Shown: in pieces, positions 2,896 through 61,414 of the stretch
Numbering within the stretch: position 1 is the stretch's first letter
How the letters are laid out: every line of letters begins with the position of its first letter
Assembly (NCBI GenBank): GCA_007378985.1
Contig: VMHB01000001.1
Span: 192,252 to 256,251 of the forward strand
Direction of reading: 5' to 3'
DNA: 64,000 bases
DNA from: Parcubacteria group bacterium Greene0714_7
Lineage (GTDB): Bacteria; Patescibacteriota; Minisyncoccia; Phycocordibacterales; Phycocordibacteraceae
Position numbers and translations under genes: made by a program
Notes under the pieces: generated by a model
Database searches by the model: none
What the model was told of the DNA's origin: nothing
What the model saw: the letters and a program-made list of their open reading frames with translations, nothing else

Positions 2896-4362
2896 ATGCT
2901 GGGATTTTTGAAAAAATCGACTGAACGATTACCTCTCTTTCTCTACAACACACTCTCTAAAACAAAAGAGGAATTTAAGACAATAAGTGGCAAAAAGGTA
3001 AAGATGTATACCTGTGGTCCCACGGTGTATGACTATGCACATATTGGAAATCTACGTGCCTACGTATTTGCTGATACGCTTCGGCGAACACTTGAATACG
3101 CTGGTCTCTCAGTGAAGCAGGTGATTAACATCACTGATGTTGGGCATCTGGCGCAGGATTCCGATGATGGAGAAGATAAGATGACCAATGCATTGAAGCG
3201 TGAAGGCAAAGAACTCACCATTCCGAACATGAAGCTTTTAGGAGAAAGCTACACTTCGCTTTTTATAGAAGACTTGAAGGCGCTCAATGTTGAAATGCCA
3301 TTCGTATTTCCACGAGCTACCGCACATATTCACGAGCAAATTGCATTTATTTCTTCGCTCTTTCAGAAAGGATATGCGTATAAAACCTCAGACGGCATAT
3401 ATTTTGATACAGCCAAGTTTCCGTCCTATGGTGCACTCGGTGTGTCTGACGGAGGACAGGCTTTGCCTTCTTTAGGTCAAGCACGCATAGTGGCAAACCC
3501 CGAAAAGCACGACCAGCGAGACTTCGCACTTTGGAAGTTTGATAGCTCTCTTGGTTTCGAAGCGCCGTGGGGAAAAGGGTTCCCCGGGTGGCACATTGAA
3601 TGTACTGCCATGGCAACCAAGTATCTTGGAAAAAGTTTTGATATACATACTGGTGGCGTTGATCACATTGCCATTCATCACAATAATGAAATTGCACAAG
3701 CAGAAGCAGTGTCGGGTAAAAGATTCGTGAACTATTGGATGCACGGGGAATTTATTACCATTGAAGGAAAACGCATTGGAAAGTCAGAAGGAAATGCGAT
3801 TCGCTTATATCAACTTCGTGAACGTAATGTAAGTCCAACTGCATATAGGTATTTATTGCTCACTGCTCATTACCGTTCGCTTTTGAATTTCACATGGGAA
3901 GCTGTACTTGGAGCGCAAACTGCACTTCAGAGGGCTCAACGCATGTTTGCGGATTTTCCAGCGGGTGGACATATTGCAACTCTCTATCGCACAAAGTTTG
4001 GGACGGCGATTAATGATGATTTGAATATACCAATCGCAATTGCGGTGATGTGGGAGCTTTTGAAAGATGATTCGGTTACACCTGCCGATAAGCGGGCGAC
4101 AATTCTCGATTTTGATCGTGTATTTGGGTTAGGCTTTGGTACAGGATCGCTTTCTGAGAGCTCTAAAGTTTCGGTCACTGCGTTATCTGATGTACCGACG
4201 GAGGTAGCGTCTTTGGTTAAAGAGCGTGAAGAGGCCAGGGGATCTAAGGATTGGGCACGCGCTGATGCACTAAGGCTTTCCATTGAAGAGCAAGGGTTTA
4301 CAGTTGAAGATGCCCCAGAAGGGCCGATCGTGCATAAAACGTCCGAAGGGTTTAAGGGATAG
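2896..4362 (+). CDS. cysS: Cysteinyl-tRNA synthetase
   Basis: Class I aaRS HIGN motif (AHIGNLRAY), a CysRS-like catalytic core and an anticodon-binding C-terminus. Confidence 0.9.
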   Translation: MLGFLKKSTERLPLFLYNTLSKTKEEFKTISGKKVKMYTCGPTVYDYAHIGNLRAYVFADTLRRTLEYAGLSVKQVINITDVGHLAQDSDDGEDKMTNALKREGKELTIPNMKLLGESYTSLFIEDLKALNVEMPFVFPRATAHIHEQIAFISSLFQKGYAYKTSDGIYFDTAKFPSYGALGVSDGGQALPSLGQARIVANPEKHDQRDFALWKFDSSLGFEAPWGKGFPGWHIECTAMATKYLGKSFDIHTGGVDHIAIHHNNEIAQAEAVSGKRFVNYWMHGEFITIEGKRIGKSEGNAIRLYQLRERNVSPTAYRYLLLTAHYRSLLNFTWEAVLGAQTALQRAQRMFADFPAGGHIATLYRTKFGTAINDDLNIPIAIAVMWELLKDDSVTPADKRATILDFDRVFGLGFGTGSLSESSKVSVTALSDVPTEVASLVKEREEARGSKDWARADALRLSIEEQGFTVEDAPEGPIVHKTSEGFKG

Positions 4363-18959: not shown

Positions 18960-19916
18960 CTAGTCAGTTTCAAAAAGCTCACTCAAAGATTCGCCATTAT
19001 TAAGGCGATTTATAGCATTGCCAAAAATTTCACCCACAGAAATAATTTCTATCTTTTGAGATAATGCTTGTGTTGGGAGAACGCTATCAGTTATGAATAT
19101 TTTTTTAACGGGCGAACGATCAATAGAGGCCATGGCATTTCCTGAAAGTATTCCGTGCGTTGCGGCAGCGTAGACTTCTTTTGCACCATTCTCCATAAGC
19201 AAAGCAGAGGCTTTTTCAAGAGTTCCGCAGGTATCAAACATGTCATCAATGATGAGTGCAATCTTTCCTTTTACATCACCGACAAGTTTCATGGCCGTTA
19301 CCTGATTTGGAATTTCTCGTTGCTTGTGAATAATTGCAAGATCCACATTTTTTGTTAGTCGTTTTGCGTATGATTGTGCACGACTTACACCGCCAACATC
19401 TGGGGAAACAACCACAAGCTCTTCTTTTGCTAATGCATCAGCAAAGAAGGATTGGAAGAAAGAAATAAATACAGGTCGTGCGTATAAATAATCAACATTT
19501 GTGTCTCTAAAGAATCCGCCGATGGCATCTGTATGTAAGTCCATTGCTAAAATTTTGTCAGTACCGAGCGTTTCAAGAAGCACCGCCACTACTCGAGCGG
19601 AAATTGGTTCACGAGGCTTTGCTTTCCTCTCCTGTCTGGCATATCCCATATACGGGAGTACGACTGTGATTTCCCTGGCAGATGCACCGCGTGCAGCTTC
19701 AACGGCGAGGAATAAGCGCATCCAATTTTCAGCAGGTGGGTTAGTGGACTGAACAAGAAATACACTCTTCCCACGAAGGTTCTCCATAAACTGCACATGC
19801 TGTTCGCCATCAGAGAATGTTTTCAGTTTTATTTTCCCCAAGGAGGTGCCGAGCTTTGATGCAATTTTTTCAGCAAGAGGGTCGTTCGAGCCGAGGCTGA
19901 AAATTGCGTAGTCCAT
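18960..19916 (-). CDS. prs: Ribose-phosphate pyrophosphokinase
   Basis: PRPP synthetase motifs (DLHTDAIGGFF, PRPP-binding loop VSPDVGGV). The start is taken at MDYAIFSLGSN. Confidence 0.85.
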   Translation of the reverse strand: MDYAIFSLGSNDPLAEKIASKLGTSLGKIKLKTFSDGEQHVQFMENLRGKSVFLVQSTNPPAENWMRLFLAVEAARGASAREITVVLPYMGYARQERKAKPREPISARVVAVLLETLGTDKILAMDLHTDAIGGFFRDTNVDYLYARPVFISFFQSFFADALAKEELVVVSPDVGGVSRAQSYAKRLTKNVDLAIIHKQREIPNQVTAMKLVGDVKGKIALIIDDMFDTCGTLEKASALLMENGAKEVYAAATHGILSGNAMASIDRSPVKKIFITDSVLPTQALSQKIEIISVGEIFGNAINRLNNGESLSELFETD

Positions 19917-20180
19917 CCGGTTGTGAGTTTTGGCGTCATGCCCGCAGTCGTCCGTAGAGATTGAAGTGTGCCCCATATATTTAGATGAAGTGGACTATAC
20001 CACTGCCGTTATGGGCATAAAAGACCGCAACGCCAAAATCTACAACGGGATCCATTAGTGGGGAGTATATCAAGAACTGTGTCTAATGTGTAACATTTTC
20101 CTCCTTGCATGGGTTTATGTATTCAGCACTAGGATACATGCGTAAAGGAGTCCTGTGTCTTATACTGCTTTAATACACCA

Positions 20181-20621: not shown

Positions 20622-21767
20622 ATGTCACGGGTAAAAATTACGGAGTATAGAGCTAAGAAACTTATACTTGGGGACGCATATGCGGGTCGTTCCTTGTCGG
20701 GTATTTCTGATGTTGGGTTTACGAAACCCAACATGGTGGTGAAGGTTGATCAAGGGATTAAGAAGCGTTTTAAGCAGGGGCTTGTTGCGGTCAATGTTTC
20801 TTCAAAGGAGGCAGGGCAGAAAGTAAGGGAATGGGAAAAGCGAGGTTTTTCTCATTTTCTTGTTGAGCCGTATGTATCGCATGAGGAGTCTGAAGAGCAG
20901 TACCTTTTTTTAGAGCGGGTACGCACGGGGATACGAGTTCTACATGCTTCTTCGGGTGGTATTGATATCGAGGCACACCCAGAACTAGTGAAAACATATC
21001 TCATAAACCCGGCACTATCATATATGGTAGTGCCGGGCATCCCAGAAAAATTCTTGAAACATCTTGTGGAGGTGTTTGAAAAAAACTTTTTCTCTTTTCT
21101 TGAAATTAATCCACTTGTTGTTCGGGGAGATGAGGTATATATCCTCGATGCAGCGGTGCTCGTCGACAGCGCGGGAATATTTTTCGTCAAAAATGGATGG
21201 AACGAAGAAGACGTTGTTGAGGGAAAGGTACGACATATTGCTGAAGAAAAAGTACAGGCACTTCAAAAAACTACCCCTGCCTCCCTGAAACTCACCATTT
21301 TGCACCCTGATGGAGGTTTGTTTTTTCTGCTTTCAGGTGGTGGTGGAAGTATTGTTATTGCAGATGAGGCAGAACTTAATGGTGTGGGTCGCTCCATTGG
21401 TAATTATGGAGAATATAGCGGTGGTCCAACTCGAGAAGAAACACATCTCTACGCACGAGAGGTGATTCAGCTATTACTTAATTCACCTGCAAAGAAGAAG
21501 GCGCTCGTGATTGCTGGAGGTATTGCAAATTTTACTGATGTTAAGTCAACATTTAAGGGTATTGTTGATGCCTTGTCAGAGTGCGCGAGCACTCTTCGAG
21601 GAAAAGGTGTAAAAGTATTTGTGCGTCGTGGCGGACCGAATGAAATTGAAGGGCTTCTTTTTATGGAAGAGTATTTAAAAAAAGAAAAATTATTTGGTTC
21701 AGTGTATGGTTCTGGTGCAGTAATTACGAGTGCAGTTGATGATGCCATTGCATTTATAAAAAAATGA
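20622..21767 (+). CDS. aclB: ATP-citrate lyase beta subunit (ATP-grasp, SucC-like)
   Basis: Blocks match the N-terminal half of ATP-citrate lyase: VVKVDQGIKKRFKQGLVAVN, FLEINPLVV, ASLKLTILHPDGG, GNYGEYSGGP, ALVIAGGIANFTDVKSTFKGIV and VFVRRGGPN. Confidence 0.8.
   Translation: MSRVKITEYRAKKLILGDAYAGRSLSGISDVGFTKPNMVVKVDQGIKKRFKQGLVAVNVSSKEAGQKVREWEKRGFSHFLVEPYVSHEESEEQYLFLERVRTGIRVLHASSGGIDIEAHPELVKTYLINPALSYMVVPGIPEKFLKHLVEVFEKNFFSFLEINPLVVRGDEVYILDAAVLVDSAGIFFVKNGWNEEDVVEGKVRHIAEEKVQALQKTTPASLKLTILHPDGGLFFLLSGGGGSIVIADEAELNGVGRSIGNYGEYSGGPTREETHLYAREVIQLLLNSPAKKKALVIAGGIANFTDVKSTFKGIVDALSECASTLRGKGVKVFVRRGGPNEIEGLLFMEEYLKKEKLFGSVYGSGAVITSAVDDAIAFIKK
21011..21034. promoter_or_regulatory. 24-bp near-perfect palindrome inside aclB that matches the TrpR-like paralog-1 operator core (19/20)
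   Basis: GGCACTATCATATATGGTAGTGCC versus operator CACTATCATATATGATAGTG. Confidence 0.4.
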
Positions 21768-21813
21768 ACCCCGTTAGAAATACCACCTGCACAGATTTCT
21801 AAAATATTTATAT

Positions 21814-23652
21814 ATGAAAAAGCGCATTGATAAAATTTCTAACGGGGTGAACATACTTGAATTAACACGGAGTGGAAGAGCAAGAGTTCTCGTCATAGGG
21901 AATCATTCAGGCATTATTCAGTCAATGCTCGATTTTGATTTTCTTTCAGGCAAGGAAATTCCTTCTGTATTGGGGATAGTTGCAGGGAATCGTAAGGCAG
22001 AAAAATATTTTTTTGGGACTAAAGAAATTTTGTTGCCATGCTATAAGAATATTCAAATTGCTTCGGAGGCCTTAGGTTCAAAGGTCGACTGGATGCTTAA
22101 TCTTCAGTCGGGACGGCGTACATTTGAATCAACGGTTTCCTTTTTTGATTTTTTCCCAAAATCGCTTGGGGCACACATATTTGCAGAAAATGTTCCAGAA
22201 AGTCACGCAACTGAGCTCATTTCTCGTTTTGGTAAGAAGTATTTTATCGTAGGGCCTTCAGGAGTTGGATTGTTGATACCAGGCGCTTTGAAGCTTGGCG
22301 CCATTGGTGGTGTTGATGCGGTTCAAATTAAATCTGGAGCACTGACAAACGCTGGAAATATTGCGGTTGGTTCAACTTCTGGAGGAATGACTAATGAGCT
22401 GATTCATGCAGTTGCGCGTGCTGGGAAAAGACTCTCGTTTGCAATAGCTATTGGCGGAGACAGGTTTCCTGTAGTTTCTTTGACGCAGATATTTGCGCTT
22501 GCTGAAGCAGATTCTCAAACAGAAGGATTTGTATATTTTGGAGAGCTTGGCGGTGTAGATGAATATGAAATTATTGAGCTCATTAAGGCAAAAAAGTTCA
22601 CCAAACCTCTTGTTGCGTATATTGCGGGAATTATAGATGAAGCATTTGATGAACATGTACAATTTGGGCATGCAAAGGCATTGGTGCAGACAATGGATGA
22701 AAGTGCTCGTGCAAAGCGTGAGGCACTTCGCGAGGCTGGTGTTATTGCTCCTGATACATTTCCTCAGTTTCTTGATGCGCTTCAAAAACTTCCCGGAGGC
22801 GCGTATACTGCTGAGGAAATGGATATAGAGCCGCTTCAAGGACGACAGAAAAGTATTCTTTCGACGAGAAAGGTTTCAGACATAGATGAAGGTCGTATTT
22901 TTGTAAAAGGAAAAAAACTTTCGAAAGGCAAAGAAAATGCATTTGTGGACGCTACGTTAGTTGCACTTCTTGGAAAGCCTGTACAGTCTCCAATAACACG
23001 AGCCTTTACCGAAGCTGTGTTTGAAATGCTTATAGACCACGGAGGAAATGTTTCAGGGGCAGTAAATACCATGATTACCGCTCGTGCTGGTAAAGATCTT
23101 GTTTCATCCCTTGCCTCAGGCCTTCTCACTGTTGGTCCCCGTTTTGGTGGAGCAATAAACGAAGCAGCTCGTTTGTGGATTTCGGGTGTTGTATCGCAAA
23201 AAACAGGTTTGGAATTTGTAGCTGAAAAAGCAAAGGCAGGTGAGTTGATTTTAGGCATTGGGCACAAGAAATACCGCGTTGGGCTCCCAGATCCTCGAGT
23301 GAAAGCTCTTGCTGAATTTGCAACGCTTCTTAAAGTACATCCACATTATGATTTCGCACGGAGCGTAGAGAAAGCAACAACTTCAAAAAACGGGAAATTG
23401 ATTTTAAATATCGACGGCGCTATTGCAGCGTTACTCTTAGACATCTTGAGTGAATGCGAAGGGATGAGTCAGCGCGAACTTCAAGAGCTTGCTGATGCTG
23501 AATTCTTTAATGCATTTTTTGTTATTCCTCGCTCTGTAGGTTTCATTGCACATTTCATGGAACAAAAGAAAAATGATGAAGGTTTGTTTCGTCTTCCTGA
23601 TGAACTACTGTTTGTGAGAGCAGAGACTCCAAAGAAAACTAAGAAGAAATAA
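21814..23652 (+). CDS. aclA: ATP-citrate lyase alpha subunit (CoA-binding SucD-like domain plus citrate-synthase-like domain)
   Basis: MLDFDFLSGKEIPSV, ARAGKDLVSSLASGLLTVGPRFGG, GIGHKKYRVGLPDPR (a citrate synthase-type motif) and PRSVGFIAHFMEQ all match the ACLY C-terminal half. Confidence 0.8.
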   Translation: MKKRIDKISNGVNILELTRSGRARVLVIGNHSGIIQSMLDFDFLSGKEIPSVLGIVAGNRKAEKYFFGTKEILLPCYKNIQIASEALGSKVDWMLNLQSGRRTFESTVSFFDFFPKSLGAHIFAENVPESHATELISRFGKKYFIVGPSGVGLLIPGALKLGAIGGVDAVQIKSGALTNAGNIAVGSTSGGMTNELIHAVARAGKRLSFAIAIGGDRFPVVSLTQIFALAEADSQTEGFVYFGELGGVDEYEIIELIKAKKFTKPLVAYIAGIIDEAFDEHVQFGHAKALVQTMDESARAKREALREAGVIAPDTFPQFLDALQKLPGGAYTAEEMDIEPLQGRQKSILSTRKVSDIDEGRIFVKGKKLSKGKENAFVDATLVALLGKPVQSPITRAFTEAVFEMLIDHGGNVSGAVNTMITARAGKDLVSSLASGLLTVGPRFGGAINEAARLWISGVVSQKTGLEFVAEKAKAGELILGIGHKKYRVGLPDPRVKALAEFATLLKVHPHYDFARSVEKATTSKNGKLILNIDGAIAALLLDILSECEGMSQRELQELADAEFFNAFFVIPRSVGFIAHFMEQKKNDEGLFRLPDELLFVRAETPKKTKKK

Positions 23653-26580: not shown

Positions 26581-26707
26581 GCTATAGATTAGTGTATAGC
26601 GTTTAGTGGTTAGGGGAATTCAATTCAAGAAAACTAAACCCTAAACGCTAGACCCTAAACCCTATTTAAGCTAGCCCCGAGAGGTTCGAAGTGTTAAAGT
26701 ATTTGCG

Positions 26708-30274: not shown

Positions 30275-30308
30275 AACCTGATACCTGAAAGTTGACACCT
30301 AAAACCCC

Positions 30309-30413
30309 ATGTCTCTCAAAGATATCAAACTCAAAATAAAATCTGTTGACCCCAGTCGTAGAGCTGGAACAGCTCACAACGGGGCAGGCCGTACTCACAT
30401 ACTATGTCGTTAA
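30309..30413 (+). other. 34-codon upstream ORF that repeats the AtpG N-terminus and contains hairpin module C. Its TAA overlaps codons 3-4 of atpG.
   Basis: The uORF begins MSLKDIKLKIKSVD, identical to AtpG residues 1-14, yet 8 of 14 codons differ at synonymous positions. Confidence 0.45.
30348..30388 (+). repeat. GC-rich hairpin module C of the GACCCCAGT...ACGGGGCAGG family
   Basis: GACCCCAGTCGTAGAGCTGGAACAGCTCACAACGGGGCAGG. The inner stem is GAGCTG-GAA-CAGCTC. Confidence 0.6.
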
Positions 30414-31321
30414 AGGATATTAAATTGAAAATAAAGTCCGTGGACAGAACACGGAAAGTTACGAAGGCAATGGAATCTGTTTCTGCGGTGAAGATGCGCA
30501 AAAGTCAGATACGCGCAATTACCTCGAGGCCCTACGCTTCTTCCGCGCTCTCCATTCTGGAGCGCATGAGTGTTTCTCTCGCGTCTCTTAAACATCCGTT
30601 AACTGTTGTGCGACCTGTCAAAAAAGCAGCAATAGTTGTGGTTACCAGCGACAAGGGACTCTGCGGCATATTAAATGCAGCTGTTGTGAAATCTGCCTAC
30701 ACTCTTGCAGAATCATTGGAACTCCCTCGTGAAGCAATTTCTATCTACGCTTTTGGACGCAAAGGGGCTGAGTTTTTTGATCGCCGTGGATATCAAATTT
30801 TAGGAAAGTTTGAAAACGTTTCTGACGATGTTTCTGTTGCTGACCTAGCTCTTGTCTCAAATGATATCGCCCGTGCATTTCTAAATAAAGAATTTGACCG
30901 TGTTGATGTTGTATATACCAACTTTAAATCTACGTTTGAGCAAAGTGCTATTGCCCATAAAGTACTTCCACTCTCCATTGAAACAGTATCTGAAATAGTG
31001 AGCGGTATTGTGCCAGTAAAAGGAAAGTTTGCTGTGGTAGAGCGAGTGAAAGGTCCTGCATCATACACGGCAGAGCCATCTACTGAAGTTGTCGTAGACG
31101 CCCTCATTCCACGCCTTGTCAGTGTACTTTTCTTCCACGCACTTTTGGAGTCAAAAGCGTCAGAGCATTCAGCTCGTATGGTTGCCATGAAGAATGCGTC
31201 AGATAAATCTCGAGATCTTTCTAAGCTACTGACAAGAAAATACAACAAAGCTCGTCAGGCGCTTATTACCAGAGAAGTTTCCGAGATTGTTGGAGGTATC
31301 GAGGCCATGGCAACGAGTTAG
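30404..31321 (+). CDS. atpG: F-type ATP synthase subunit gamma
   Basis: Gamma subunit N- and C-terminal coiled-coil helices (MSLKDIKLKIKSV...ITREVSEIVGG). Confidence 0.9.
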   Translation: MSLKDIKLKIKSVDRTRKVTKAMESVSAVKMRKSQIRAITSRPYASSALSILERMSVSLASLKHPLTVVRPVKKAAIVVVTSDKGLCGILNAAVVKSAYTLAESLELPREAISIYAFGRKGAEFFDRRGYQILGKFENVSDDVSVADLALVSNDIARAFLNKEFDRVDVVYTNFKSTFEQSAIAHKVLPLSIETVSEIVSGIVPVKGKFAVVERVKGPASYTAEPSTEVVVDALIPRLVSVLFFHALLESKASEHSARMVAMKNASDKSRDLSKLLTRKYNKARQALITREVSEIVGGIEAMATS

Positions 31322-31354: not shown

Positions 31355-31528
31355 ATGACACTTCTAGCTGAAAGAGTACATAGAAAAAATTCTGACAAAG
31401 GATTGAAAACAGTGGTGGAAACTGACGGAGTTCGAAAAAGTTCGTGGCGTCTTACTGAGGCTGAGCAGGCTATCTTAAGGGTATTAAATGGCGAGGCAAC
31501 TGTAGGGCCTGTTTGGGATATAAAATAA
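31355..31528 (+). CDS. Small ORF (57 aa) in the atpG-atpD spacer, below the ORF-track threshold
   Basis: ATG...TAA is open. MTLLAERVHRKNSDKGLKTVVETDGVRKSSWRLTEAEQAILRVLNGEATVGPVWDIK. Confidence 0.3.
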   Translation: MTLLAERVHRKNSDKGLKTVVETDGVRKSSWRLTEAEQAILRVLNGEATVGPVWDIK

Positions 31529-31532
31529 AAAT

Positions 31533-31724
31533 ATGGCATCACCAGAAAGAAAGGGAAGATTAGACATTAGTGAGGTTCCATTTCGTGGGCGCCTTGCTTC
31601 CGCTGGTGGTTTTGATGGGAGAGGTCGAGGTGGCGGAGGTAGACTTGAGGATGAGAAATTTAGACCTCGCCTCCTTCAAGGAGGATTAAGTTCATCTTCA
31701 GATCCGGAAAATCAAAAAGAATAA
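31533..31724 (+). CDS. Small Arg/Gly-rich ORF (63 aa) in the atpG-atpD spacer
   Basis: RGG-like tract FDGRGRGGGGRLEDEKFRPR. It is on the same strand as the operon. Confidence 0.3.
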   Translation: MASPERKGRLDISEVPFRGRLASAGGFDGRGRGGGGRLEDEKFRPRLLQGGLSSSSDPENQKE

Positions 31725-31770
31725 AAGAAATTAATATATTAAAAGTTGCAACCTATAACCTGACACCTAA

Positions 31771-33156
<1,386 letters not shown>

Positions 33157-42653: not shown

Positions 42654-42755
42654 ATGGGAAGTTACGACCGCCCCAGTACCACCGGGCTCCGCATGGCTAC
42701 GGGGCAGGAAGTGGTTCGATATATAATCGTGTTTTTGACATTTTCAGTACCCTAA
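42654..42755 (+). other. 33-codon upstream ORF with a LeuRS-like start (MGSYD versus MQSYD) that contains hairpin module B and ends 6 nt before the leuS ATG
   Basis: ATG GGA AGT TAC GAC then CGCCCCAGT... The TAA lies at 42753. Confidence 0.4.
42666..42708 (+). repeat. GC-rich hairpin module B of the GACCCCAGT...ACGGGGCAGG family
   Basis: GACCGCCCCAGTACCACCGGGCTCCGCATGGCTACGGGGCAGG. Confidence 0.55.
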
Positions 42756-42761
42756 ATCTGC

Positions 42762-45173
42762 ATGCAATCATACGACCACAAAAAAATAGAGAAAAAATGG
42801 CGAAAGCTTTGGGAAGAGTCAGGTATTTACAAGACTAGTGAAAATTCATCAAAGCCAAAGCACTATGTTCTGGACATGTTTCCGTACCCATCGGCGTTAG
42901 GTCTTCACACTGGTCATGTTGAAGGGTATGCGGCGACCGATATTTACAGTCGTTTTAAACGAATGAAGGGGTTCAGTGTGCTCCATCCTATGGGATGGGA
43001 TGCGTTCGGTCTCCCTGCAGAAAACTATGCAATAAAAACAAATACGCCACCTCGAGAAACTACAAATAAGGCAATTGATAACTTCCGCAATCAAATCCAA
43101 CGCTTAGGCCTTTCGTATGACTGGTCACGAGAAATAGGCACTCACAATCCTGACTATTATAAGTGGACACAGTGGTTGTTTTTGTTCTTGTTTGAAAATG
43201 GTCTTGCGGAAAAACGCATGGGTAAGGTGAATTGGTGTCCCACCGACCAAACAGTGCTCGCCAATGAACAAACAGTGAGTGAGAGTGGAGAAAAGGGTGT
43301 GTGTGTTCGTTGCGGTACAAAAATAATTCAACGCGAACTTTCACAGTGGTTTTTCAAAATTACTGATTTTGCTGATGTATTAATTGATGATTTGAATGGT
43401 GTTGATTGGCCAGAGTCTACAAAAATAAATCAACGAAATTGGATTGGTAGAAAAGAAGGAGTCATTGTTACTCATAAAGTGAAAGGGCTGGATGTATCGC
43501 TCGACACGTTTAGTGCCTATCCTGCATGGCTTTTTGCGGATACCTATATGGTACTTGCTCCTGAGCACCCAATAGTAAAAACTCTTGTGGAAGGTACTGA
43601 AGTACAAAAGAGTGTTGAGGATTTTGTGAAGTGTATGCAGGAGGTCACAACGATTGATCGCACAAACGCAACAACGGAGAAAGAGGGTATTTTTACAGGA
43701 CGCTTCGCTATTGACTCTCTCTCCGGTAAAGAATTTCCTATTTGGATTGCTAACTTTGCTTTGATGGATTTTGGAACAGGTATTATTCGTTGCTCTTCAC
43801 ACGATATCCGCGACCTTACATTTGCTAAAAAATACGGAATCCCTTTGAGTGAGGTAGTCGAGAGAGAAAGTCCTGATATGCCCGTTGATGCCCATGCTAA
43901 TAAGGGTGTTTTGAAAGACTCGGGTCCGTTCACTGGTCGCACTATTAATAATGAGTTAATTCAAGAAATAATTGCGTGGATAGAAAGTAATGGATATGGG
44001 CATGCACAGACTACATACCGTCTTCGTGATTGGCTTATTTCTCGTCAACGATATTGGGGGGCGCCTATTCCAGTAGTGTATGACCCAGAAGGGAAAGCGC
44101 ATGGAGTTCCCAAAGAGCACTTGCCGTGGCTCCTTCCTGAAGATGTAGAGTATTTACCGAAGGGAACTTCACCGCTCGGAACCTCAAAGGAACTTTTGGA
44201 ACGAACAGAGAAAATATTTGGGAAAGGGTGGAAGCCAGAGATCGACACTATGGACACTTTCGTGTGTTCTTCGTGGTATTTTCTTCGATTTGCCGATCCA
44301 CATAATGAGATTGAGTTTGCGTCGAAAGAAGTAGTAAAAAAATGGCTTCCCGTTGACCTCTACATGGGAGGTGCTGAACATACAGTTTTGCATCTTATGT
44401 ACGCCCGCTTTATTACCAAGGCCCTGCAGAAGTTTGGATACATAGAGTTTGGTGAGCCATTCTCCAAGCTCCGTCACCAAGGGATGATTCTTGCTGAAGA
44501 TGGAACCAAGATGTCTAAGTCGAAAGGTAATGTCATAAACCCTGACGAAATTAGTGAACTCTACGGTGCGGACACGCTACGAATTTATGAAATGTTCATG
44601 GGTCCTCTTGAAGCTATGAAGCCATGGAGCACCAAAAATATTATTGGCTCACGGAGATTTTTGGAGCGTGTCTGGAGGGTACAAGAAAAGGTGAGTCAAG
44701 GTGCAACTTTGAGTGCAAGCGCTGATGCCACTCTACAGCAAACAATTAAAAAAGTAGCTGAAGATATCGAGCTCCTTAGTTTAAACACGGCAGTGAGTCA
44801 GATGATGATTTGTGTTAATGCTTTTGAAAAAGAAGAAAAAATACCTGCTGAAAGCTATGAGAGCATGCTGTTGGTACTTGCCCCGTTTGCACCTCATATG
44901 ACAGAAGAATTATGGGAAACTTTGGGTCATACTTCTTCAATTCATCAAGAAAATTGGCCAGTGTTTGATGAAAGTAAGCTCGAAAAAAATGAAGTAGTAA
45001 TGGCTGTTCAGGTTGGTGGGAAAGTAAAGGGCACCATTGTCATTCCTCGCGGAGCTACAGAAGAAGAAGTAATTGAGTTAGTACGAAAAGACGTCAAACT
45101 TGGTGGGGTAGTTCCTCAAAACCCATCCCGCATGATATTCGTTCCCAATAGGGTCGTTAACTTCATACCCTAG
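42762..45173 (+). CDS. leuS: Leucyl-tRNA synthetase
   Basis: HIGH-region equivalent (HTGHVEGY), KMSKS, and the CP1 editing and anticodon-binding domains. Confidence 0.95.
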   Translation: MQSYDHKKIEKKWRKLWEESGIYKTSENSSKPKHYVLDMFPYPSALGLHTGHVEGYAATDIYSRFKRMKGFSVLHPMGWDAFGLPAENYAIKTNTPPRETTNKAIDNFRNQIQRLGLSYDWSREIGTHNPDYYKWTQWLFLFLFENGLAEKRMGKVNWCPTDQTVLANEQTVSESGEKGVCVRCGTKIIQRELSQWFFKITDFADVLIDDLNGVDWPESTKINQRNWIGRKEGVIVTHKVKGLDVSLDTFSAYPAWLFADTYMVLAPEHPIVKTLVEGTEVQKSVEDFVKCMQEVTTIDRTNATTEKEGIFTGRFAIDSLSGKEFPIWIANFALMDFGTGIIRCSSHDIRDLTFAKKYGIPLSEVVERESPDMPVDAHANKGVLKDSGPFTGRTINNELIQEIIAWIESNGYGHAQTTYRLRDWLISRQRYWGAPIPVVYDPEGKAHGVPKEHLPWLLPEDVEYLPKGTSPLGTSKELLERTEKIFGKGWKPEIDTMDTFVCSSWYFLRFADPHNEIEFASKEVVKKWLPVDLYMGGAEHTVLHLMYARFITKALQKFGYIEFGEPFSKLRHQGMILAEDGTKMSKSKGNVINPDEISELYGADTLRIYEMFMGPLEAMKPWSTKNIIGSRRFLERVWRVQEKVSQGATLSASADATLQQTIKKVAEDIELLSLNTAVSQMMICVNAFEKEEKIPAESYESMLLVLAPFAPHMTEELWETLGHTSSIHQENWPVFDESKLEKNEVVMAVQVGGKVKGTIVIPRGATEEEVIELVRKDVKLGGVVPQNPSRMIFVPNRVVNFIP

Positions 45174-45175
45174 AG

Positions 45176-45202
45176 CATGTGGGACCTCGGAGGTCCCACA
45201 TG
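45176..45202 (+). terminator. Strong 11-bp-stem hairpin after leuS (no clear U-tract)
   Basis: CATGTGGGACC-TCGGA-GGTCCCACATG. Confidence 0.5.
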
Positions 45203-45210
45203 GGGGTGGC

Positions 45211-45351
45211 CCCCGCACTAAAACTTGGCGTTATAGCTTGCTGTACTGATATATGAGATTATTTATACTACTGTTGCCACTATTGCACTCCGTGTAATGC
45301 GTTATACTCACGCTTCGCTATGAGGTACGACGCCAAGTTCTAGTGACGGGG
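45211..45351. repeat. About 140-nt element bounded by imperfect 21-bp inverted repeats with CCCCG...CGGGG ends
   Basis: CCCCGCACTAAAACTTGGCGT ... ACGCCAAGTTCTAGTGACGGGG. Confidence 0.4.
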
Positions 45352-52782: not shown

Positions 52783-52875
52783 TTTCTCCTCCTTTCCAAG
52801 GTCGCTAGATTTTCTTTTCATACTGAACATATTTTCATATATGGAAATATCTGCACGAAAACATGGTGTATAACT

Positions 52876-52917
52876 TCACTCACATGTATTTCCATATATG
52901 GAAATACATGTGAGTGA
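52876..52917. promoter_or_regulatory. 42-bp perfect palindrome in the divergent spacer between TrpR-like paralog 2 and the MGMT-like gene. An imperfect copy lies at 52849-52868.
   Basis: TCACTCACATGTATTTCCATATATGGAAATACATGTGAGTGA. The core TTTCCATATATGGAAA is shared with the 52352 palindrome. Confidence 0.6.
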
Positions 52918-59706: not shown

Positions 59707-60984
59707 ATGGATCAGCATCGCAGCATTCAAGATATTATTCCACCTGCCCGTTCAAAGCCTATAAGAAGTTCTATGCCTGGAACTTCAGAAACTACACCAC
59801 CACCACGATCAACACCACCAAAAAGCATGCCTGTTAATCCTAAACGACCAAGTGGCTTCTTCGGATTCGCTGTCGTGGCGGGAATTGTTGCGGTACTGCT
59901 CGTTGTCGGTGTTGTAGTCATTAGTACGGTTTTCTACCGAGCATATATTACTGTGACCCCAGTCTCTTTCAGCGTCCCTGTACAAGCTTCTTTCGAGGCA
60001 TCTCTTACGAGTACAGAACTTCCATATCAAAAAATTGCCGTTTCTGATACCGCGTCTAAGAGTGTGCCTGCTACAGGAACACAGCATGTTGAAAATCATT
60101 CTTCGGGAACGATTACTATCTACAATGCGTATACTGCGACACCCCAGCGTCTCATTACAAATACTCGTTTTGCAACAAAAGATGGGCTAGTTTTCCGAGT
60201 GCATGCGCCAGTTGTAATCCCTGGTTACACAATGAAGGCCGGTATTAAGGTACCAGGCTCTGTAGATGTCCTTGTATATGCTGATGAAGCAGGAGAGAAA
60301 TACAATATCAGTCCTACCGACTTCACTATCCCCGGCCTTAAGGCATCTAAGCAATACACTCTTATATATGCGAAATCAAAAGGATCTACAACGGGAGGAT
60401 TTATAGGCGAACAGGCCGTTGTAGACTCAACTGTTCGTTCGGAAACTGTTGCAGGTTTAAAGGCAGAAGTTGAACGCTCTCTTCGTGCAAAGATGCTCGT
60501 GGCACTGCCCGCAGGGACATTGGTTTTTAATGACTCTGTTTCCATCATCTATGTAGAAGCTCCTGACGCTGTTGATGGTAGTAATGCAGTAATCTCTATT
60601 TCTGGCACGGCTTCGGCACCGGCGGTCAATGAAAATGCACTGGCTCGTTCAATCGCCACTACAGGGCAAGTTTCGTACGATGGGTTATTGGGCATTGCAA
60701 ATCCTAATGATTTCCGTGTTGTAGTGGATGTTCCTGAGTCGTTAGGCACAGATACGCCTATACACCTGAATGTTTCTGGGACGGCAAAATTGGTTGCACT
60801 TTTCGATATTAACGCTCTAACTAAAGATCTTACGGGTATACAAAAAAAGGACATAAAGGTTGTTTTGCCTAACTATCCATCGATTTCAAACATCGATGTC
60901 AAGGTATATCCTTTCTGGAGAGGGGGCATGCCTAATGACCCAAAGAAGCTCAAAATAACAGTGTCCGAGACATCCACAAACTAA
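59707..60984 (+). CDS. Hypothetical single-pass membrane protein with a Pro-rich N-terminal tail and a large extracytoplasmic domain
   Basis: A Pro/Ser/Thr-rich cytoplasmic tail, one transmembrane helix (FFGFAVVAGIVAVLLVVGVVVI), then a soluble domain. Confidence 0.45.
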   Translation: MDQHRSIQDIIPPARSKPIRSSMPGTSETTPPPRSTPPKSMPVNPKRPSGFFGFAVVAGIVAVLLVVGVVVISTVFYRAYITVTPVSFSVPVQASFEASLTSTELPYQKIAVSDTASKSVPATGTQHVENHSSGTITIYNAYTATPQRLITNTRFATKDGLVFRVHAPVVIPGYTMKAGIKVPGSVDVLVYADEAGEKYNISPTDFTIPGLKASKQYTLIYAKSKGSTTGGFIGEQAVVDSTVRSETVAGLKAEVERSLRAKMLVALPAGTLVFNDSVSIIYVEAPDAVDGSNAVISISGTASAPAVNENALARSIATTGQVSYDGLLGIANPNDFRVVVDVPESLGTDTPIHLNVSGTAKLVALFDINALTKDLTGIQKKDIKVVLPNYPSISNIDVKVYPFWRGGMPNDPKKLKITVSETSTN

Positions 60985-61000
60985 CCTGTGAGTTCTTCTT

Positions 61001-61137
61001 GACCCCGTTGTAGATGTTGGTGATATTCAATTAATGATTTAAAAAACGTTGAAAAACATGATTAAAATGAACTCGCTCACTTTGCAAAAACTATCTCAAG
61101 TGGATAACTTTTCACCAACATTCACAACGGGGTTGAC
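61001..61137. repeat. 137-nt element bounded by 20-bp inverted repeats with GACCCC...ACGGGG ends. It is related to hairpin modules A-C, and its 3' arm overlaps the -35 of the infA operon promoter.
   Basis: GACCCCGTTGTAGATGTTGGTG ... CACCAACATTCACAACGGGGTTGAC. It shares CACAACGGGG with module C. TTGACG-N17-TACTAT follows. Confidence 0.45.
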
Positions 61138-61195
61138 GTCTGATACTTATTTCTGGTACTATAGCTAAGTCCAATTCAGATACTGATTCGCTCAA

Positions 61196-61414
61196 ATGGT
61201 ACGCACGAAAGACACTGAGGAAAAGCTTGGTACAGTTACCGAGTCACTCCCAAATGCTCTATTTCGAGTAATCCTTGAAGGCGGAGAGGAAGAGATGCTT
61301 GCATATCTTGCAGGTAAAATGAGACTCCATCGCATTCGCGTGTTGGTGGGGGATCGCGTTTCTCTTGTTCTGGATCCGTACGGCGGACGTGCACGAATAG
61401 TGCGACGTCTATAA
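61196..61414 (+). CDS. infA: Translation initiation factor IF-1
   Basis: S1-like OB fold ([26 protein letters not shown]). Confidence 0.9.

Follow-up and report, generated by a model that had tools for sequence, protein, structure and literature searches.

Hairpin-forming MITEs that lie between genes are known from several bacteria, as Correia/NEMIS in Neisseria, ERIC/IRU in enterobacteria, RUP in the pneumococcus, and MITEAba12 in Acinetobacter (in part PMC6382973 and PMC3049150). The repeat family described here is like these elements in its size range (about 100-170 bp), its terminal inverted repeats, the lack of an ORF, the short target duplication, and the many copies. Like them, it varies in presence from one close genome to the next, lies at gene boundaries, and has the potential to create promoters or change existing ones. 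The genomes of CPR/Patescibacteria are among the smallest and most streamlined, and are usually held to be poor in mobile DNA. In the 64-kb stretch of DNA analysed here (the window), whose host lineage is Patescibacteria (Paceibacterota, Kaiserbacteria-like), two genomes of about 95% identity differ by four independent insertions of one superfamily of elements. The insertions struck the promoter of a ribosomal operon, a start codon, and a stop/start overlap, none of which was destroyed.

The element upstream of infA is called E1 below. We put the probability at about 0.85 that E1 is a MITE-type non-autonomous DNA transposon, belonging to a family of elements of about 125-141 bp, with shorter derivatives, in Paceibacterota (Patescibacteria). 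Terminal inverted repeats of about 22 nt, ending in CCCC.../...GGGG, and no coding capacity are the traits of this family.

E1, its empty sites, and the infA promoter

The spacer in which E1 lies measures 211-214 nt and separates a 425-aa hypothetical gene (59707-60984) from infA (61196-61414). A first-pass annotation had placed an inverted-repeat element at 61001-61137. The inverted repeat is present there and can be refined to two arms of 22 nt each, 20/22 (91%) complementary, with 88 nt between them; when the arms are paired, a conserved A.C/G.T bubble remains. The end motifs given in the same annotation are correct as described, and its boundaries were corrected by the empty sites described below to 61004-61132 plus one TTGAC. 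The features of the locus are as follows.

60999 to 61003, plus strand: left copy of the 5-bp duplication TTGAC; a single TTGAC stands in the empty sites of six relatives (L002-L007)
61004 to 61132, plus strand: E1, a 129-nt non-coding hairpin element, CCCGTTGTAGATGTTGGTGA...TCACCAACATTCACAACGGGG, with an AT-rich interior; seen as a 134-nt gap in six relatives, an inverted repeat, and a fold
61002 to 61023, plus strand: 5' arm of E1 (terminal inverted repeat), containing the family-conserved GTTGTAGA
61112 to 61133, plus strand: 3' arm of E1 (terminal inverted repeat), containing the family-conserved TCACAAC
61133 to 61162, plus strand: native infA-operon promoter, from a promoter scan; conserved in relatives without E1

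A 147-nt region containing E1 folds at -41.3 kcal/mol, as against -23.6 +/- 3.7 kcal/mol for its shuffles (z = -4.7; 0/200 shuffles as good), and the fold of the reverse strand is just as good. A census of the window for 18-nt arms with <=2 mismatches, 30-170 nt apart, gave only 3 inverted repeats of this quality. There are just two occurrences of CACAACGGGG in the window, one at 61123 and the other at 30375, on the 3' side of a small hairpin before atpG. No ORF of note is found in E1, which is overlapped only by a chance 39-codon TTG ORF. A weak arm-like match at 60384-60426 was discarded as coding sequence (GEQAVVDS).

For comparison, 70 loci from GTDB species representatives were fetched via aligned homologues of the upstream protein, and the order of the hypothetical gene and infA is conserved among them. 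The spacer is 80 nt long in relatives whose upstream protein is 99, 98, 95, 79, or 72% identical, 104 nt in a 78% relative, and typically 66-130 nt in about 60 other loci. Alignment with the six relatives L002, L003, L004, L005, L006, and L007 leaves one clean gap. The extra DNA of the window is exactly 134 nt, consisting of the 129-nt element and a 5-bp target duplication, as which either copy of TTGAC (60999-61003 or 61133-61137) can be counted. The empty site of the relatives reads ...GAGTTCTTC-TTGAC-GTCTGATAC..., that is, GTTCTTC-TTGAC-GTCTG with a single TTGAC, and the filled site of the window reads ...TTC-TTGAC-CCCGTTGTAG...CACAACGGGG-TTGAC-GTCTG.... The boundary is ambiguous by +/-1 nt, the C of TTGAC also being readable as the first C of the element, and the alternative reading is a 130-nt symmetric element with a 4-bp duplication.

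Because outgroups of graded distance all lack the element and have one TTGAC, an insertion in the window lineage is far more parsimonious than six precise deletions. Judged by these alignments, E1 is an insertion and not a conserved promoter structure. The first-pass annotation had proposed a member of a mobile repeat family, to be looked for as an empty site in related genomes and as further copies. Both were found, the empty site in six relatives and additional copies in the window, in relatives, and in metagenomes. In another relative, L009, a 100-N scaffold gap (2831-2930) begins exactly after the same infA TTGAC; such elements probably break assemblies.

The best promoter-like site of the spacer is TTGACG-N18-TACTAT, with the -35 box at 61133-61138, an 18-nt spacer, and a TG-extended -10 box at 61157-61162. 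The right copy of the E1 duplication makes up the first 5 nt of the -35 box. The whole stretch is nearly invariant in all six relatives, and since TTGACG is present in relatives without the element, the -35 box is older than E1. The 3' arm had earlier been taken as the source of the -35 box. That view had to be given up, since the promoter is conserved in all relatives without the element and TTGAC is the duplicated host target. As read from the empty sites, the -35 box is the insertion target, and the duplication rebuilds it. E1 has entered the -35 hexamer of the infA-rpmJ-rpsM-rpsK-rpsD-rpoA promoter with duplication of the target TTGA(C), and the downstream duplicate restores TTGACG at the right distance from the -10 box, so that the operon promoter is retained. 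E1 now has the upstream stop codon on one side and the infA promoter on the other; a long hairpin could form there in RNA read through from upstream, and an effect on transcription is conceivable. A second, weaker promoter-like site is formed by the left TTGAC copy and the 5' arm (TTGACC-17-GATATT, 60999-61027).

A distant relative (L050, 31%) carries an element of different sequence in the same infA -35 TTGAC (3798-3932), with TTGAC on both sides. Its geometry is like that of E1, with 22-nt arms, 91 nt between them, and the ends ACCCCC.../...GGGGGT. With E1, the L050 element, and the L009 gap, the infA -35 TTGAC looks like an insertion hot spot.

Two observations concern the leaders of genes in these operons. 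The genes infA, rpmJ, and rpsM are not preceded by any evident Shine-Dalgarno sequence. Also, an ACCTGA / GACACCTAAAA motif recurs shortly upstream of atp-operon start codons (30275-30310 and 31745-31782, and also at 100-175 of L009), and may be a lineage-specific leader or promoter motif.

The family within and beyond the window

Besides E1, the window holds three members, all of which are absent from the closest relative, JAGOSG01, with clean empty sites. The contig JAGOSG010000001.1 is 93-99% identical to the window in the flanks, and its orthologous loci were reached via cluster members and homologues.

19917 to 20050, minus strand: E2, 134 nt, on the prs start codon; empty site CCACTAATGGACTACGC in JAGOSG01 (L098) and in L099
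45210 to 45350, plus strand: E3, a 141-nt divergent member, CCCCCGCACTAAAACTTGGCGT...ACGCCAAGTTCTAGTGACGGG, flanked by GTGG; absent from L095, L096, and L097; inverted repeat
21770 to 21847, no strand assigned: E4, a 78-nt short member, CCCGTTAGAAAT...ATTTCTAACGGGG; empty site AAAAAATGAACATACTTG in L098; inverted repeat

E2 was found in a 3-mismatch search with the 5' arm of E1. It is flanked by ATGGA (plus-strand TCCAT at 19912-19916 and 20051-20055), which is duplicated from the empty site CCACTA-ATGGA-CTACGC. The prs start codon is regenerated beside the 3' arm of E2, the duplication rebuilding ATG-GAC. In 10/13 cluster members prs is 318 aa long; it is called at 338 aa in the window because of an in-frame ATG inside E2, so that the gene is annotated 20 residues too long.

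E3 separates leuS from the promoter of a sigma-like gene, and its empty site is TAG-GTGG-GGATAAG, of which GTGG is duplicated. A second structure downstream of leuS, reported earlier at 45211-45351, is this element, a real structure with related arms. Directly after the leuS stop codon and adjoining E3, a 32-nt GC-rich hairpin (CATGTGGGACC-TCGGA-GGTCCCACATG, 45174-45205) was also observed, which is absent from JAGOSG01 and L097.

E4 was not in the earlier list and was found by comparison with JAGOSG01. Its inverted repeat is 14 bp and perfect when the flanking A/T is counted, and TGAAC stands on both sides (21765-21769 and 21848-21852). The empty site, AAAAAA-TGAAC-ATACTTG, is the ATGA stop/start overlap of two citrate-lyase-like genes. 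After duplication of TGAAC, the left copy keeps the TGA stop, and the right copy together with the last G of the element supplies a GTG start (21847). An alternative in-frame ATG inside E4 (21814), 33 nt upstream of the GTG, adds 11 codons, and in this way the second gene gains an N-terminal extension. Gene calls are distorted by the elements in both E2 and E4. The targets of E1, E2, and E4, namely TTGAC, (A)TGGAC, and TGAAC, fit the consensus TKRAC. The elements are usable as strain-level markers.

Outside the window, 24 copies were found in other Paceibacterota contigs, 23 in metagenomes and 1 in a GTDB genome. One metagenome scan (JGI) with the two-arm pattern gave the 23 copies at 21 loci on 17 contigs, the hosts of which are relatives of the window organism (e.g. 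L092, with atpD 85% identical) and lower-GC Paceibacterota-like genomes. The remaining copy was found with an arm HMM in a 58%-identity relative (L009, 178-319) and is flanked by TACAA. The family spans 78-141 nt and has the ends 5'-CCCCGTTGTAGA.../...TCACAACGGGG. The flanks of the copies are unrelated to one another.

Perfect direct repeats of 3-5 bp abut both ends in 21/26 copies when the element ends are set 4 nt outside GTTG and CAAC. The repeats seen are TAA (7 copies), TTGA (4), TGAA, TGGA, TCAA, TTTA, TGTA, CAAG, CAA, TAG, TACAA, and TCAAA. No single fixed duplication length fits them, and terminal-base models of 4+4, 3+4, and 4+3 each cover only some copies.

The arms are conserved in all copies, including an asymmetric AGA/CTC bubble, and the interior is alignable only within subfamilies. 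A GTAG conserved in the 5' arm is missing from E3, E4, and L050. Compensatory changes (10/44 pairs) preserve the pairing of the closing stem and of an inner hairpin in the largest subfamily. The sense strand folds at -42.1 and the antisense strand at -43.2 kcal/mol (p = 0.16), and G.U counts are equal on both strands. Since pairing is kept and both strands fold equally, the constraint therefore looks like one on a DNA palindrome or hairpin and not on a strand-specific RNA.

Additional E3-like hairpin elements with arms CCC(C/A)GCAC... were observed in the infA-rpsD cluster of relatives, at 3230-3388 and 4138-4245 of L009, 2523-2635 of L015, 2979-3111 of L051, and 2923-3015 of L052. Three of them are followed by the same TGTAACGTTT.

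Small hairpins joined to recoded gene starts

Small hairpin modules of the window had been regarded as possible mini versions of the element. The one before atpG is the following.

30351 to 30384, plus strand: 34-nt hairpin with E1-like termini (CCCAGTCGTAGAGCTGGAACAGCTCACAACGGGG), joined to the GTTGAC of the original atpG codons 13-14

It shares both termini with E1, TTGAC-CCCAGTCGTAGA...CTCACAACGGGG against TTGAC-CCCGTTGTAGA...TTCACAACGGGG, and this part of the earlier view stands. It is not merely a shortened copy, however, but the 5' part of a 95-nt insertion with a recoded atpG start, common to the window and JAGOSG01; SCTS01 (95%) and L104 (78%) are without the insertion. Upstream, ATGTCTCTC...GTTGAC is the original atpG start and matches SCTS01 and L104. 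The hairpin is followed by a 19-nt spacer and then by a new 14-codon start, recoded synonymously. Two copies of atpG codons 1-14 stand at 30310-30447, with 9 synonymous and 0 non-synonymous differences, and the upstream copy now opens a 34-codon ORF overlapping the real start. The window atpG is alone in its 90% cluster and atpA is not, which suggests that this atpG may be a foreign allele. As far as the sequences go, the relation of the hairpin to E1 is one of similarity of termini only.

Insertions of a comparable kind were observed at two other genes. At leuS, a 108-nt insertion (42670-42777) lies after codon 5 (fifth/sixth codons) and is absent from JAGOSG01, with TACGACC at both ends. It opens with a CCCCAGT...ACGGGGCAGG hairpin (GCCCCAGTACC...GGCTACGGGGCAGG) and closes with a second, diverged leuS promoter, leader, and start, giving MQSYD in place of MGSYD. 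Between atpG and atpD, an insertion of about 420 nt relative to JAGOSG01 (31360-31782) contains two small ORFs, the first of which reuses the original atpD ATG. The new atpD start after it is ATGCAAGGC (ATGCAA), with MQG instead of MNG, and 42 nt of the atpG-atpD spacer of JAGOSG01 are absent from the window. The atpG, leuS, and atpD insertions have related termini and are a different phenomenon from E1.

Three further palindromic structures of the window were recorded. A 30-nt palindrome in a coding region (CCCGGCACTATCATATATGGTAGTGCCGGG, 21008-21037) is matched by JAGOSG01 in 29/30 positions as the reverse complement and in 27/30 directly, as if it had been flipped, with three amino acids changed. 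A strong inverted repeat, ATATTTTCATATATGGAAATA.../...TATTTCCATATATGGAAATA (52829-52907), adjoins the beginning of a Trp-repressor-like gene and may be an operator. Another, TTAGTGTATAGCGTTTAG.../...CTAAACGCTAGACCCTAA (26589-26658), lies upstream of atpB.

Gene-boundary targets, rival explanations, and known systems

In 13/26 copies, all among the 23 from metagenomes, the TAA/TAG stop codon of a co-oriented upstream ORF stands directly against the first C of the element, and the orientation is the same in 13/13. Stop codons make up only 5.7% of non-coding TAA/TAG sites on both strands of the same contigs (p ~4e-11). In E2, L075, and L077 the terminal A of the element and the TG of the duplication form an ATG start codon, and E1, L050, L085, and L091 stand at TTGAC boxes. 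In each of the stop, start, and TTGAC classes, the signal is restored by the duplication. The stop-codon bias may come either from an asymmetric recognition of the target or from very strong filtering in genomes as compact as these. The strong, oriented association with stop codons and the recurrent TTGAC boxes make it testable whether targets are chosen, or insertions selected, at gene boundaries.

The classification of E1 as a MITE is based on several observations. At 129 nt and with no coding capacity, it falls below the limit of about 500 bp. Terminal inverted repeats are present in E1 (from the insertion boundary), E2, E3, E4, and L050. Comparison with empty sites gives the duplications TTGAC (E1), ATGGA (E2), GTGG (E3), and TGAAC (E4). 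Copies are dispersed, with 4 in the 64 kb of the window and 24 elsewhere in unrelated flanks. A putative transposase supplied in trans, presumably of DDE type, would bind both ends and insert the element at a target cut with a stagger of 3-5 nt; the flanking direct repeat would arise as the gaps left by this joining are repaired. No transposase or autonomous partner was found in the 64-kb window, where Pfam searches of 20 ORFs of unknown role gave housekeeping domains or no match. In about 1 Mb of fetched loci, no IS-sized end pairs (inverted repeats 600-3500 nt apart) were found other than pairs from separate small copies.

The lack of such a partner counts against this classification, and so do three further findings. 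The interiors of E1-E4 are wholly different though all four were gained after the split from JAGOSG01, which is unlike a recent burst from one master copy. The duplication length is 3, 4, or 5 bp, with an ambiguity of +/-1 nt at the C/G ends. Also, the 13 stop-abutting copies in one orientation are unexplained by a simple sequence-blind transposase.

A wider reading of the target pattern can be offered only tentatively. It would make the family a widespread Paceibacterota MITE superfamily, integrating selectively and in fixed orientation into stops, starts, ATGA overlaps, and -35/-10 hexamers, with the duplication rebuilding the signal on both sides. Target choice would be tied to gene-expression signals, or the elements would be portable UTR or promoter modules, and the CCCCAGT...ACGGGGCAGG hairpins would mark breakpoints of foreign 5' gene ends (atpG, leuS, atpD). 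If true, such rebuilding of gene punctuation would explain why the elements are tolerated even by essential operons of ultra-compact genomes.

A retained RNA role is somewhat less probable still. Mobility would then account for the spread only, and the family would be kept for what its hairpin does in RNA, either protecting or ending upstream transcripts from within their 3'-UTR, or acting as a switch by which upstream translation is coupled to the next start codon. Such a role agrees with the position of 13/23 metagenome copies immediately after a co-oriented stop codon, with E2, L075, and L077, where the downstream start codon is buried at the stem base, and with the covariation that keeps the closing stem and inner hairpin paired. 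However, the stability and G.U content described above show no strand bias, and a strand-specific RNA structure was rejected on this ground. Also, no U-tract follows the hairpin (right flanks TAAAT or TTGAC), and no intrinsic terminator or terminator-like site is present in 60850-61300.

It is improbable that the elements were placed by import of foreign alleles, through homologous or homology-facilitated illegitimate recombination with diverged relatives, the hairpins marking recombination breakpoints. The unrelated interiors of E1-E4, all absent from the closest relative, would suit import, and the 5' gene ends substituted by the atpG, leuS, and atpD insertions are diverged and must be foreign; the clustering of the window atpG alone, with atpA among relatives, points the same way. 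The flanks of E1, E2, and E4, however, are collinear with JAGOSG01 as far as the duplicated 5 bp, and no foreign segment adjoins these elements. The direct repeats still need an original transposition somewhere, and the question raised by import is where this occurred, not what the element is.

Very improbable is a REP/REPIN-like or IS200/IS605-derived palindromic element (PATE) that travels as single-stranded DNA with the help of a Y1 (HUH) transposase or RAYT. The long hairpin equally good on both strands, the GTAG of the 5' arm, the pairing kept by compensatory changes, and the orientation-specific insertion at an asymmetric target (13/13 at TAA/TAG) would all suit it. The IS200/IS605 and REP systems make no target duplications, however, and these are proven here by three or four empty sites. 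A constant left-only target of 4-5 nt is also lacking, since the right flank repeats the left flank whatever its sequence, and the inverted repeat reaches the very termini instead of being subterminal. In addition, E3, E4, and L050 are without GTAG, and no RAYT or TnpA gene exists in the window. A conserved, non-mobile cis-regulatory structure of the infA operon (promoter-upstream operator or RNA leader), for which the strong fold, the orientation shared with the operon, and the position right beside the -35 box could speak, is already refuted by the empty sites as we read them: E1 is absent from 6 close and about 60 distant relatives with the same gene order and promoter, lies upstream of the -35 box and hence outside the mRNA from that promoter, and has related copies adjoining unrelated genes.

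An integron attC site (RYYYAAC 5', GTTRRRY 3', in a cassette array) was rejected for E1, as the motif order is reversed on either strand (GTTGTAG 5' and CACAAC 3') and its neighbours are housekeeping genes. Rfam searches of the whole window at gathering thresholds returned only 4 tRNAs, and at the E1 locus nothing meaningful was returned at E up to 10, the best sub-threshold match on E1 scoring 21.9 bits against a gathering score of 139.7. A BLAST search of E1 against plasmids and phages gave no match. A literature search for MITEs in CPR/Patescibacteria, or for MITEs targeting stop or start codons, found nothing relevant. The MITE-like family was not found described. As an element it is of a known kind, and its tie to gene boundaries is unusually precise.

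Among known systems, the IS5 / PIF-Harbinger-type and IS1380-type transposons are a candidate lead for the family. They are like it in their 3-5-bp duplications of T...A type (TAA, TTGA, TGAA, TGGA, TCAA) and their C-rich ends, but no transposase was found by which the family could be assigned. The RAYT-mobilised REP/BIME/REPIN elements are also hairpin doublets with conserved arms round a less conserved spacer, with GTAG and an intergenic location near stops. Unlike the RAYT-dependent REPINs, which make no duplication, the window family has proven duplications and lacks GTAG in several members. The Rickettsia palindromic elements (RPE) are likewise small palindromic mobile elements of a reduced genome, tolerated at or inside gene ends and adding residues, as do the in-frame ATG and 11 codons of E4 and the annotated 20-aa prs extension of E2. 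RPE are inserted in frame inside coding sequence and translated, whereas the window elements stand on stop, start, and -35 signals, mostly outside ORFs.

From the bacterial MITEs named at the outset, the window family differs in having no sequence similarity (no plasmid, phage, or Rfam match), in its host, a CPR/Patescibacteria lineage for which no MITE report was found, and in an interior that is unalignable between subfamilies though length and arms are kept. It also differs in inserting precisely and orientation-specifically on stop codons, and in a duplication that rebuilds start codons and -35 boxes.
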